A stretch of DNA of 64,000 nt from Escherichia phage SD2: the sequence record PQ821640; one strand, given 5' to 3'. Position numbers and translations under genes: made by a program. Of the stretch, positions 11,961 through 23,980 are shown one piece after another (position 1 is the first letter of the stretch; every line of letters begins with the position of its first letter). A model generated the notes under the pieces. That model worked only from the letters and a program-made list of their open reading frames with translations. It searched no databases and had not been told where the DNA came from.

Positions 11961-12020
11961 TATTTTGAAAATTTTTATTTTTATAAAAAGGGGTGTGGGT
12001 TTCATGTACGGAAATTCACC

Positions 12021-12041
12021 CTCTGAATAATATATTCAGAG
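12021..12041. repeat. perfect inverted repeat CTCTGAATA-ATA-TATTCAGAG
   Basis: 9-bp stem, 3-nt loop, read directly; overlaps a second palindrome CAGAGTA...TACTCTG (12037-12062). Confidence 0.6.
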
Positions 12042-12174
12042 TAAATATTATTTTGTACTCTGTTAATAAATTATTTAATTTGTTTGTTGGATTATGATAT
12101 CTGGTTTTTAAAAGGCATACTATCTCTTAACTACTACTTATAACAGAACAGTAAAATCATTTTTATAAAAAGGA

Positions 12175-12382
12175 CAAAATTATTTAAAGTTTTTACAGAT
12201 TTTTGGATACAAATTTTGAAAATGAAAAGTTCAAGTTTGGTCAAAATTATTTAAAGTTTTTGTATGTATTTCTATCCAGATTTTGAAAATGAAAACTTCA
12301 ATTTTTTAAAAATTCCCCAGTTTATTTAAAGTTTTTTTACCTTTTTCCGTAGAAAAATCAAAAATGAAAAGTTCAATTTCGT
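12175..12382. repeat. three tandem direct repeats of about 68 bp
   Basis: Each unit begins TTATTTAAAGTTTTT and ends TTTTGAAAATGAAAAGTTCAA; AT-rich, non-coding. Confidence 0.7.
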
Positions 12383-12400
12383 GTTTTTATGGGTATGCGT

Positions 12401-12515
12401 ATGATAATCATTCTCATTTGTAAATGAGAATCATTATCATTTAATTATGTAAATGATAAGCATTCTCACTAAGAGAATGAGAATCATTAGCAAATGAGAA
12501 TTTTTCTCATTTGCA
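12401..12515. promoter_or_regulatory. cluster of five or more Fur-box-like dyad motifs
   Basis: ATGATAATCATTCTCATT, AATGAGAATCATTATCATT, ATGATAAGCATTCTCA, GAGAATGAGAATCATTAGC, AATGAGAATTTTTCTCATT; compare E. coli Fur box GATAATGATAATCATTATC. Confidence 0.45.
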
Positions 12516-12772
12516 GAATAACGCGCAGGGGCGGTGTTTGTCTCGCGCTCCCGTGTCCCCTCGCCATACAATAAGAATAGCATAACCAACAACAAAAGCA
12601 AGCGATTATTTTTATCTTTACATTTCTTTACAAATTTATTTTAGACGAGCTACCGGCGATCAACCTTCCAACCAGTGCCCCTGGTATGTTAGCCCCGCCT
12701 TTACGCCGTGGGGGTGGCGCTTCCTCTTCTGTATGTAAAACAGTATAAGCCCGATCCCTGGGCTTGTCAAGA

Positions 12773-13039
12773 TTATTTTTTGTTTTCTTGCCAGGATAGG
12801 ACACCTAACCAAAAATACATGTCGCCCCGTGCCCCTGGCGGGATCTTGCTTTCCCCGCCGCCACTGCAAGCCCATAAATAACCATTTACGAACGTATCAA
12901 AGTGATCTATCTCTTCCACCTTATGATCGCCCAGGTTGAGAACGGTTTCAACCTTTAAGCCCGTTGCGCTTGCTACCTGGTGCACCGTGCCGCCTTGCCA
13001 GCCCAATGAGTGCATGAGATGTAAAGGAGTATTTGTCAT
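12773..13039 (-). CDS. hypothetical protein inside a GC-rich, compositionally atypical segment
   Basis: 88-aa ORF on the opposite strand to the surrounding plus block, within 12520-13130 which is visibly GC-richer; overlapping track ORFs in other frames judged spurious. Confidence 0.4.
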   Translation of the reverse strand: MTNTPLHLMHSLGWQGGTVHQVASATGLKVETVLNLGDHKVEEIDHFDTFVNGYLWACSGGGESKIPPGARGDMYFWLGVLSWQENKK

Positions 13040-13149
13040 GGTATCGCCCTTTCTTTGATGTGCGCCCTGGTTGGCGCGGTAGAAAGATAATAGCCGTTTC
13101 CTTTATAGATAGCAAGCAAAAAAGAAATGAAAAAAGATTAAAAAAATGG

Positions 13150-13209
13150 TTGACGTTCCTCACCTGGTAGCGTAGTATTCATCTTGTCGAGGGGCGGCAA
13201 TAGTGCCGC
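13150..13209 (+). promoter_or_regulatory. promoter (TTGACG-17-TAGTAT) plus 5' hairpin GCGGC-AATAGT-GCCGC
   Basis: Read directly; upstream of ORF 13234. Confidence 0.6.
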
Positions 13210-13233
13210 TCATAACAGAAGAGAGAAATAATC

Positions 13234-21357: not shown

Positions 21358-21741
21358 ATGAGCAATATCATCAACCTGGCGGCTACTGTAAACGGTAAAG
21401 ATTTTAACGGCGCTGTAGATCGTGATCCTATGTGGTACTTGTCAGTATTTAAAGGCGATCTGGTTGAAGTTAGAACAACCGAAGGGTATAGCGATGATTA
21501 TAAATGCGAGATCCATTTACATAACTGGTACACGGGGAAAACTTATGCGCTAAACCATGCGTTTATCGGGAAAATTGAATATCGCGAGATGATCGACGAA
21601 GAAACGGGGCAAGATTTTAGCGATTATGTTTATATTCGTTCAGAAACATTAGCCGAACGTTTGATCGAGAAAATGAAAGCAAAAAATAAAATTAATTTAG
21701 CTCATTGGCTTGATATAACAAACGATCCGGCTTATAAGTAA
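21358..21741 (+). CDS. hypothetical protein
   Basis: 127 aa; GAGGAA SD. Confidence 0.7.
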   Translation: MSNIINLAATVNGKDFNGAVDRDPMWYLSVFKGDLVEVRTTEGYSDDYKCEIHLHNWYTGKTYALNHAFIGKIEYREMIDEETGQDFSDYVYIRSETLAERLIEKMKAKNKINLAHWLDITNDPAYK

Positions 21742-21751
21742 ATAACATTTC

Positions 21752-21785
21752 ACACCAGGGCGCACAAAGCGCCCTTTCTTTTTTA
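21752..21785 (+). terminator. rho-independent terminator
   Basis: AGGGCGC-ACAAA-GCGCCCT then TTCTTTTTT. Confidence 0.75.
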
Positions 21786-21988
21786 CCTAAATAAAGATGA
21801 TAGCTTTTACCTATCAAAAACGTTCACCGAAAAAAGTGAATAGATCGCGGTATCGAGCTAATCAAGGAGCAGATGAACAACCATACCATGAAGATCATAA
21901 GGCGCTTACAACGTGTTTTAGACCGCTTATTTTTAATTTCTTCATGTAACTATCTGGCAAAAACAGCCTTTTTCTTGTCTTTCCTCTT

Positions 21989-22065
21989 AAATGATAATCA
22001 TTCTTATTTATAGCTGATTATTTATGCAATAAACTGAATAATGTAATAATGATAATCATTCTTAA
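21989..22065. promoter_or_regulatory. two direct copies of AATGATAATCATTCTTA (Fur-box-like)
   Basis: At about 21989 and 22047 inside an AT-rich non-coding region. Confidence 0.45.
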
Positions 22066-22890
22066 CTTAAGACCATCTAACCTATAAAATAATAAGTTAT
22101 CTAACTAAATTAAAACTAATTATCTCACCTTTATTTATAACTTACTGTTACTATCTCATTGATAACCTTATATTAAACAACAATAACTAATATAAATTAT
22201 TACTAAGCTAAATATAATCTATCTAACCTTTAAAACTATAATTATAATCTATCGAATTGTTGCACAAAGTAACTATTAAATTGTTAGTAACATTACTAAA
22301 TAATTAATATCCTATCTATTTATGATCTAATCTTTACCTTCCTATTTATTACCTAAATAATCATTTCATACCGTAATCATTTCATACAATAATTATAACA
22401 AGAAATATAATTAACAAGCGTATCATTAGCAGCCTATGCCGGACACATAGGCGGCTAATAATAACGCAACTACACACCCCACATAATAACCATCACCGAT
22501 AGTTATTATTTGTGCTTATGTAGCTTGCAACAACTGCAAGCGCAACAATATACATGGTATATTGTATTCCCTTACATTGTTGCGGTGCGTTATTATTAGC
22601 TAATGTTTGGAACATTGGCTATAATATAAGCTATCCAATAATAAACATAGTGAATAATAACCCTGATGATCATAATGCGCCACCTTCCAGGGGGCGCTAT
22701 GTGAACACAAAGAAATCTTTCTTGTCAAGAAAAATATTACCATTATTGCGCAAAATTATTTACATCTGAATAGATGGTTTTTCATACTATTGCCCCATAT
22801 AGCCTATCATTTGTTGAGCCTACTTTCTTAAAAGCGCAATAAATTAGAATTATCTTGATTTTTAGGGCGTTTTATAGTATAGAAAATATG

Positions 22891-22915
22891 CAAATGATAA
22901 TCATTATCAGTTATC
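22891..22915. promoter_or_regulatory. Fur-box-like site AATGATAATCATTATC
   Basis: 16 consecutive matches to the E. coli Fur consensus as I recall it. Confidence 0.5.
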
Positions 22916-23070
22916 TTCCACGGGTGGCACTATTTCACGCAGGATCATTTCATTTGGCAAGGTGTATATAGATGTTTAGACTTGCCAAGCCATTGATTTG
23001 CTTAGAATTTATCTGTTTTGTTGTGAGTAATGCCTTTCTTGCTCAGAAAATAATCAAAAGTCTTATAAGT

Positions 23071-23114
23071 CATTGAATGATAATGCAAATGATAATAATT
23101 CTCATTGATATTTG
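23071..23114. promoter_or_regulatory. degenerate tandem Fur-box-like motifs
   Basis: GAATGATAATGCAAATGATAATAATTCTCATTGATA. Confidence 0.4.
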
Positions 23115-23512
23115 AGGGGGACGGTCAGCAGAAATCGGGGGGCGCTGAAAATCGCGTTAAGCACCTCTCGCAAGCGAGCAGTATTTTGCGGCAAGTTATT
23201 GATATTATTGACTTTACGCTTATGAAAAGGGGGTGTGTCGAAATAAATCGGGTATACCGGAAAATTTTTGTGGCATAGATATTTATTTGTCTATATTATG
23301 TACAAAGGGGTGTGTTAAAAATATTAGGTATATATAGAATAATTGATAGGGAAATCCTATACTAAATCCTTCATTATTGCAGCGGGTGAAAGACAGAATC
23401 GAAGATGCAAATAATGCTTGCATTGGATAGAAATGTCTGTATAGTGGTTTGCATACCGCGCACGACGCGTTTCCATTTTCAATAAAATGTTAGCATTATG
23501 GGGAGGTAGAAA

Positions 23513-23980
23513 ATGAGCGAAAAACCAGTGAGAGCTTCCACAATATTGGAAGCATACCTGCAATGCGTTGTAGATTACGTCAAGAGAAACTCCAGCCTAC
23601 TGGACGTCTACCGTGCAGATGATGGCGATGTTGGTATTGTCTATGTGAAACACACTTTATCCGCGCGTAATGAGGTTTTCCGTGCAAGTATGTTAGGGTG
23701 TGATCGTGTTCGTGTGAACTATTTAGACCCGAACTATCGCCATGCTCTTGAAGATATTGAAGATTATCTTCCTCGCTGCCCGACAGGTAATGCAAAAGTG
23801 GCAGAAGAAGCCCCACAAGGTGTTGATTATCGTGTAGCCTTGTGGAAAAAGGCACGTCAACTACAAGTGCTGAATGAAATGAAAGAAGAGATTGAAAAAG
23901 AACTGAAAGAAGATTTTGGTATGCTTCCAAAAGACGCTTTGAAATGGTATGATGAACTAGGAGGAGAAAGTTATGAATAA
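23513..23980 (+). CDS. hypothetical protein
   Basis: 155 aa; GGGGAGG SD. Confidence 0.7.
   Translation: MSEKPVRASTILEAYLQCVVDYVKRNSSLLDVYRADDGDVGIVYVKHTLSARNEVFRASMLGCDRVRVNYLDPNYRHALEDIEDYLPRCPTGNAKVAEEAPQGVDYRVALWKKARQLQVLNEMKEEIEKELKEDFGMLPKDALKWYDELGGESYE

Follow-up and report, generated by a model that had tools for sequence, protein, structure and literature searches.

A gene-free region of Escherichia phage SD2 with a predicted direct terminal repeat, a covarying multi-hairpin element and Fur-box-like sites

In Escherichia phage SD2 (sequence record PQ821640), the segment at 21786-23512 of the 64,000-nucleotide (nt) stretch analyzed here (the window) lies between two + strand genes, a homologue of Phi92_gp248 at 21358-21741 on its left and a homologue of Phi92_gp001 at 23513-23980 on its right, both of which match PHROG families (phrog_1507 and phrog_14944). 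The segment itself contains no credible gene. Four small open reading frames (ORFs) tested against PHROG gave no family match, and a tRNA search found none. The longest ORF, of 71 amino acids at 22554-22769, was rejected as a gene, given an ATG that falls within a hairpin loop and its absence from phages phi92 and inny. G+C content drops to 32.0%, compared with 37.1% across the window, and the lowest-GC 1-kb bin of the window (0.292) is 22001-23000. The original prediction had described the segment as AT-rich, gene-free and furnished with repeats and hairpins, a description borne out by these figures and by the repeats and hairpins found in the sequence.

Matches to the segment at 93-96% identity occur in 128 phage records, nearly all of them from E. 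coli myophages of the subfamily Stephanstirmvirinae, and at about 95% identity the window can be assigned to Justusliebigvirus, the phi92 group of myophages. A gene-free gap of 1.5-2 kb resides at the syntenic position in phAPEC8, ESCO13 and ASO2A (Phapecoctavirus) and in Klebsiella phage KP13-26, and the gap in Vequintavirus LL12, where the terminal repeat of that phage has been placed, spans about 2.5 kb. Cross-genus conservation is confined to islands at 21758-22104, 22391-22600, 22809-22909, 23065-23114 and 23276-23517. Database records of such phages are often opened at arbitrary points, or carry at least 10 spurious small ORFs over the region. In addition, over this region several records labeled as Campylobacter phages (MG0656xx, host C. 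jejuni) share about 95% identity with these E. coli phages; probably, either the host labels are wrong or the phages are contaminants.

Judged by these relatives, the segment is where the genome termini (the concatemer junction) of a phi92-like Justusliebigvirus lie, a type of region already known for phi92. Its central feature is a direct terminal repeat (DTR) of 343 bp at 22817-23159 (+ strand), present as one collapsed copy and placed by base-for-base alignment with the DTRs of phi92 and UAB_1. The phi92 record (NC_023693) annotates DTR-L at 1-343 and DTR-R at 148270-148612, and the window segment aligns with both over 343 bp with few substitutions, the boundaries and flanking genes also agreeing; a DTR is likewise annotated in the record of Salmonella phage UAB_1. 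The ends of the BME3 record map to window positions 22817 and 23158 at about 96% identity, and the terminal repeat of that phage was determined as 342 bp by PhageTerm (PMC12210895). Boundaries homologous to those in the window also delimit the 328 bp that are identical at the two ends of the WPEC4 record and the 343 bp that are identical at both ends of the record of Klebsiella phage phi1_175008. Elsewhere, a 328-bp repeat has been reported for Schickermooser (PMC6563267) and a PhageTerm-defined repeat of 459 bp for LL12 (PMC6658697), and six new isolates end in DTRs, as do other members of the subfamily (PMC12695924).

No second copy of the DTR was found in the window, which, with its single copy, therefore represents the concatemer-junction (collapsed) form. 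As shown by homology, the virion DNA is predicted to be linear, starting at 22817, stopping at 23158/9 and carrying the repeat at both ends. By the same homology, the left physical end would open with AGCCTACTTTC, and the right physical end would close with ...AAATCGCGTT(A), that is, ...AAATCGCGTTA. The packaging site that had originally been suggested for this segment is thus right in substance, since the segment holds the 343-bp DTR together with both terminase cut sites of phi92-type phages. The BME3 record (PP239276) shows two oddities of its own in this area: its "DTR-L" feature (146957-147298) is 73 nt off from the sequence that is truly repeated at the record ends, and its first 788 bp recur near the far end, at 146169-146956. 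Both look like artifacts of assembly or annotation.

The boundaries of the DTR and the associated cut motif are kept in three genera, represented by Justusliebigvirus, a Phapecoctavirus-like phage and a Klebsiella phage. The sequence around the left cut in these genera is ..TGTTG^AGC(A/C)C.., and that around the right cut is ..GAAAAT(T)CGCGTT(A)^AGCACCTCTCGC.., with AGCACCTCTCGC at position 23160 of the window. A related motif, ..GTTR^AGCACCT(T)CTC.., is found twice in direct orientation, where the repeat starts and just past it; in WPEC4 and phi1_175008, the repeat-opening AGCACCTTCTCTTAAA closely resembles the downstream AAGCACTTCTTACG (WPEC4) or AAGCACCTCTCGCAAT (phi1_175008). It could be, then, that one nuclease specificity makes both cuts. 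The reported repeat boundary of LL12 has a AGCACTCC motif at a distance of 4 nt, and this motif resembles the cut motif AGCACCTC.

To the left of the DTR, at a distance of about 216 nt, is a multi-hairpin element of 170 nt, composed of a hairpin at 22432-22452 and a four-way junction at 22454-22600. The first of these, hairpin A, has a 7-bp stem and a conserved loop, CCGGACA. The junction is closed by a 15-bp stem (22454-22468/22586-22600), within which lie a short helix (22470-22473/22520-22523) and hairpins B (22486-22494/22498-22506), C (22524-22530/22534-22540) and D (22541-22546/22579-22584). Two hairpins had been noticed in the original prediction, and both exist, at slightly different coordinates: AGCCTATG...CATAGGC, then placed at 22417-22440, occupies 22431-22452, and CTTGCA-ACAAC-TGCAAG is corrected to 22524-22540.

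Support for this fold comes from homologues in at least five lineages, including 10 from IMG/VR and metagenomes; pattern scans of those collections yielded these 10 true homologues, which were kept, and 5 chance matches, which were dropped. Of the 47 pairs predicted by RNAalifold, 13 have changed on both sides. In an alignment of 13 sequences, 98.8% of cells pair and the covariation score is 0.237, compared with 0.082 for shuffled alignments (0/500 as high) and at most 0.046 for slid ones; with 19 sequences, 98.1% of cells pair and the score is 0.214, compared with 0.067 shuffled and at most 0.043 slid. Compensatory changes are present in five helices. In hairpin A, 3 of the 7 pairs show double compensatory changes and every cell is paired (100%, 19 sequences), and a compensated change from A-T to T-A is seen in the closing stem even in arall, a phage that is otherwise nearly identical. 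Folding is more stable than that of shuffled sequence, whether 22405-22615 (211 nt) is treated as RNA (z = -5.6 on the + strand and -6.3 on the - strand) or 22428-22604 (177 nt) as DNA (z = -7.9). The covariance model finds the element at 155.7 bits as a single copy, with no second copy in the window. The same element is also present in a "Pseudomonas phage" (PsgM04F) and an "Acinetobacter phage" (ABPW7).

A weak homologue of the element (23.7 bits, E about 1e-4 to 2e-3) is detected in LL12 (MH491969) at 2638-2840 on the - strand, 213 nt from the 459-bp repeat of that phage, and shares with the element a hairpin, the 15-bp closing stem and hairpin B. The spacer between element and repeat varies in length, from 216 nt in the window (22601-22816) to 251 in phi92, about 267 in WPEC4 and about 280 in phi1_175008; in the window, it contains a palindrome, TTTCTTG-T-CAAGAAA, and a G+C hairpin at 22679-22699. 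A four-way-junction element at about 210-280 nt from the repeat is thus a feature of Stephanstirmvirinae, with a weak counterpart in Vequintavirinae, and appears to be undescribed. Its covariation-supported structure is strong, and it is a plausible new cis element. Near it, the hexamer ATTAGC occurs in 3-9 direct copies within about 300 nt in Klebsiella, Citrobacter and Phapecoctavirus relatives, where about 0.1 would be expected, often in the form TATTATTAGC. The 3' arm of the closing stem contains one ATTAGC and the 5' arm an inverted copy. The window has just 2 direct copies. ATTAGC is a likely protein-binding iteron.

The strongest repeat of the region, overlooked in the original prediction, is AAATGATAATCATT, which occurs four times (21989, 22047, 22892 and 23087) and constitutes the core of the 19-bp E. 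coli Fur operator (consensus GATAATGATAATCATTATC). Fur-box-like sites 1 and 2 (21987-22063) contain the cores AATGATAATCATT at 21990-22002 and 22048-22060, both exact 13-mer palindromes, and the 22045 site has 3 mismatches to the consensus; similar sites occupy syntenic positions in phAPEC8, ESCO13, ASO2A and KP13-26. Site 3 (22890-22908, GCAAATGATAATCATTATC), within the DTR and 73 nt from its left end, matches the consensus at 17 of 19 positions. The corresponding left-end site varies in position, lying at 74 in the window, 72 in WPEC4 and 100 in phi1_175008. Array 4 (23079-23110, GATAATGCAAATGATAATAATTCTCATT), also within the DTR, is about 50-80 nt from the right end. It is identical at 29 of 32 nt to the operator in the E. 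coli fhuF-yjjZ intergenic region, is kept in WPEC4, phi1_175008 and FKP3, and has a constant right-end position across three genera.

These matches are far more numerous than chance would provide. With up to 3 mismatches, the Fur consensus is found 6 times in the window, where 0.03 would be expected, and with up to 4 mismatches 3 times in the region, compared with 0.057 in composition-matched simulations. Sites in the region carry 2, 3 and 4 mismatches to GATAATGATAATCATTATC, and the fhuF operator itself, measured in the same way, has 3-4. When the DTR segment 22860-23125 was compared with 5,426 E. coli genomes, 41 matches were obtained, all of them weak. Three were inspected, corresponding to the fhuF-yjjZ operator, to the promoter region of a TonB-dependent receptor, and to an uninformative location among remnants of prophages and insertion sequences.

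Fur-box-like sites also occur away from the terminus. A second cluster of about 5 sites, including the palindrome GCAAATGAGAA-TTT-TTCTCATTTGC, resides at 12397-12515, and a lone site with 3 mismatches (CAAAATGATAATCTTTATC) is found at 277-295, where the genes are apparently on the - strand, as judged by GC skew. In Klebsiella phage Muenster (MT708547), a jumbo phage of the genus Alcyoneusvirus, an array of five sites at 787-1324 lies within the 20-kb terminal repeat, mostly upstream of the first coding sequence, the start of which is overlapped by the last site. The T5-like Salmonella phage Kenya-K44 (OQ291036) carries tandemly arrayed sites, one about every 30 nt, at 898-1090, positioned 280-470 nt outside its 8.45-kb DTR. 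Such arrays recur in unrelated phages that share hosts, which points to a host factor, namely Fur, rather than to a phage-specific protein. The most likely ligand of the four Fur-box-like operators of the region, of which two lie within the repeat and two some 800 bp upstream, is host Fur-Fe2+. A literature search, with most subscription journals outside its reach, found no description of Fur boxes in virulent phages.

Taken as a whole, the segment is probably best explained as a terminus region with cis-acting flanks and Fur-box-like operators, although other readings of its parts deserve consideration. The strong covariation of the hairpin and four-way junction (22432-22600), the RNA fold scores on both strands, and conserved unpaired stretches such as CAACTACAC together with the loop GCCGGACAC would all suit a structured non-coding RNA expressed from one strand, whether a packaging RNA resembling the phi29 pRNA or a regulatory RNA. 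The original prediction had included such an RNA among its candidates, and the covarying element lends it some substance. Against it, Rfam 15 gave no match at the gathering score for the whole window and none even at E <= 1 for 21700-23600, and inspection of several lineages found neither a conserved promoter (-35/-10) nor a conserved intrinsic terminator around the element. In addition, G-U pairs account for 2 of 796 cells in the 19-sequence alignment, which would be unusual in a functional RNA. The near-absence of G-U pairs favors a structure in single-stranded DNA over one in RNA, as does the lack of conserved signals for transcription, and a DNA fold acting in cis at the genome end is accordingly the favored interpretation of the element. 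The direction of the wobble changes speaks the other way, in that A-C on the + strand (14 cells, at least 5 events), equivalent to G-U on the - strand, makes up most of the non-Watson-Crick cells, while T-G on the + strand is represented by one event; this asymmetry of about 5 to 1 is not significant. RNA from the - strand is hence a live rival, and an RNA from either strand is unlikely overall. A literature search for transcriptomes of Stephanstirmvirinae found nothing relevant. The same stretch, extended to 22060-22700, might instead or additionally act as a replication origin, another of the functions first proposed, and its 357 bp of 20% GC, its tandem and dispersed repeats, the excess of ATTAGC iterons in relatives and a gene-free position conserved across the subfamily are all in keeping with this idea. 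However, the region 21786-23512 contains no DnaA box with up to 1 mismatch, the AT-rich zone is unconserved between genera, the window has the two ATTAGC copies noted above and a single tandem repeat, a 16-mer present 2.4 times, and the turns in GC skew at about 8 kb and 35 kb track gene orientation rather than the region. Another non-coding region, with 67-bp repeats at 12175-12380, is at least as good a candidate. An origin here is therefore a fairly improbable reading, albeit one that may coexist with a terminus function.

The Fur-like repeats admit a different explanation, in which AAATGATAATCATT constitutes an operator or recognition repeat for a phage protein, either a regulator or the small terminase, and the likeness to Fur boxes is a by-product of AT-rich hexamers. 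Terminase-binding repeats would be expected in the DTR, where the sites hold conserved positions, and the sites do not clearly overlap a promoter. Yet the best site, at 17/19, beats the bona fide fhuF operator in its match to the Fur consensus, another is nearly identical to that operator over 32 nt, the second cluster lies 10 kb from the ends, and similar arrays are found in T5-like and Alcyoneusvirus phages, which share hosts and not regulators. Recognition by a phage protein is, on balance, rather unlikely. Least probable of all, to the point of being highly improbable, is that the region is a functionless AT-rich spacer in which repeats and hairpins arose by chance or as mutational by-products. 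AT-rich DNA does yield promoter-like and short-repeat matches (a sigma-70 scan gave 18 weak promoter-like sites, none convincing, where 11.5 were expected), but the conserved islands, the compensatory changes in five helices, the conserved termini and the excess of Fur-like sites are all difficult to reconcile with it; covariation and the mapping of termini in relatives exclude chance. Several observations nevertheless weigh against the terminus reading or parts of it, beyond the wobble pattern already described. As the window has one repeat copy, its boundaries are drawn from relatives at 96% identity. The left cut motif is weak and diverged in the window and in phi92 (AGCCTACTTTCTT), although clear in WPEC4 and phi1_175008, and a role of the hairpin element in packaging is putative. 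Neither a consensus scan nor inspection revealed a strong sigma-70 promoter overlapping the Fur-like sites, although there are weak candidates, such as TTGATT-17-TATAGA just upstream of the site at 22890, and LL12 has only degenerate versions of these sites, as would also suit a phage protein.

The processing of this terminus can be pictured as follows. A terminase or nickase would cut at both sites within replicated concatemers, and the 343-bp repeat would be duplicated by strand-displacement synthesis, as proposed for T7, a phage that likewise has to duplicate its repeat and in which repeat-containing hairpin DNA has been observed (PMC4281155). The hairpin and four-way junction of the left flank may fold in single-stranded DNA and thereby aid terminus processing or the duplication of the repeat. 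The non-coding flanks would, in general, be cis-acting DNA, the right side providing the promoter and leader of the first left-arm genes. Binding of Fur would conceivably make early transcription responsive to iron, or soak up Fur as copies of the genome accumulate.

Comparisons with known systems help to delimit what may be new here. Relative to the DTR of phi92 and other Stephanstirmvirinae, nothing differs in kind: the window is another isolate in collapsed, single-copy form, with termini assigned through relatives. The arrangement resembles that of T7 in its short, non-permuted repeat, its fixed ends, and the presence, on the right-end side, of inverted repeats that precede the repeat by a few hundred bp (about 216 nt here). 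In T7, a hairpin is said to lie about 190 bp left of the repeat, reportedly a finding of Chung, Nardone and Hinkle from 1990. It differs from T7 in belonging to a 148-kb myovirus without T7 RNA polymerase or a CJ pause site, in its four-way junction of 170 nt, where T7 has a simple inverted repeat, in the presence of a cut motif at both boundaries, and in being described from sequence. Like the phi29 pRNA (RF00044), the multi-hairpin element is a structured element of similar size near the genome end of a fixed-end phage. It differs in that it shows no match in sequence or model, has a four-way rather than a three-way junction, has few G-U pairs and has no promoter that could be found. Also, phi29 packages protein-primed DNA that lacks a DTR. 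The Fur-box-like sites, in turn, share with E. coli Fur operators the 19-bp palindrome of NATWAT hexamers (17/19 and 16/19 matches) and the arrangement in arrays seen in strong Fur operators, whereas their location, in the terminal repeat and non-coding DNA of a virulent phage rather than in front of an iron-uptake gene, is unlike that of the bacterial operators.

The remaining features of the left flank are of a more ordinary kind. The last right-arm gene is followed by an intrinsic terminator at 21757-21785 (+ strand), with a 7-bp stem that includes 6 G-C pairs and is succeeded by TTCTTTTTT; it is annotated likewise in phages Paula, phAPEC8 and ASO2A. Further downstream is the very AT-rich repeat zone at 22060-22416 (357 bp, 20.2% GC), the length of which varies between genera and which holds a tandem 16-mer, AATAATCATTTCATAC, repeated 2.4 times at 22356-22393. 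As mapped by eye, this 16-mer is probably the repeat_region annotated in the records of inny and arall.

To the right of the DTR, 23160-23512 (+ strand) is the leader and promoter region of the first left-arm gene (23513-23980), with GGGGTGTG motifs at 23227 and 23304 and a promoter-like sequence, TTGCAT-16-TATAGT, at 23418-23445. Within this flank is a module (23384-23517) whose counterparts, at 89-97% identity, precede several different early genes in Phapecoctavirus (L008 5653-5724 and 6368-6497; L010 4340-4418 and 5065-5131; L007 2122-2200 and 2846-2912), and from these matches it looks like a mobile cassette consisting of an early promoter and leader. In relatives with matches of 2.2-2.7 kb, extra small genes are inserted at this module. 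The motif AAAGGGGTGTG, which the original prediction had listed as occurring twice with a similar copy elsewhere, is exact at 23304 and 11987, and the copy at 23227 is AAGGGGGTGTG, with one mismatch. All three are intergenic, with a TTGAC-like hexamer about 15-20 nt upstream, and the 4 matches found, compared with 0.85 expected, are weakly significant. A role for AAAGGGGTGTG as a phage-specific promoter element is conceivable.

A second large gene-free region, at 11961-13230, follows a gp223 homologue. Direct repeats of 67 bp lie at 12175-12305, and a looser third copy, recognized by eye, extends to about 12380; the second cluster of Fur-box-like sites comes next. Conservation within the region is about 70% in Phapecoctavirus (12304-12620) and about 84% in Vequintavirus (12493-12547). 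The G+C-rich portion at 12505-12900, folded on both strands, is unstructured (z = -0.9 and -0.5). This region is a candidate origin or regulatory hub.

In its identity, then, the terminus region of SD2 is ordinary and of a known kind, while two of its sub-features appear to be undescribed, with strong structural and sequence evidence and with functions that are as yet proposals. That phage ends of this type carry both a four-way-junction terminus structure or RNA and genuine Fur operator arrays, as two previously undescribed cis elements, is possible and is put forward tentatively. The true ends matter in any case for the assembly, annotation and engineering of phi92-like and phAPEC8-like phages, which have a broad host range and are explored for therapy. 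To our knowledge, the cutting and duplication of such ends have been worked out in part, and for T7 only. If the multi-hairpin element is real in function, it would represent a new terminus-processing structure, a single-stranded DNA fold that duplicates the repeat or loads the terminase, or else a packaging or regulatory RNA; if it is required in cis, it would offer a handle on how large myoviruses with short DTRs cut and duplicate their ends. Similarly, genuine Fur arrays would couple early phage expression to host iron, or titrate Fur and so derepress iron uptake by the host. If the sites do bind Fur, virulent enterobacterial phages would sense or manipulate the iron regulation of their hosts from the ends of their genomes.

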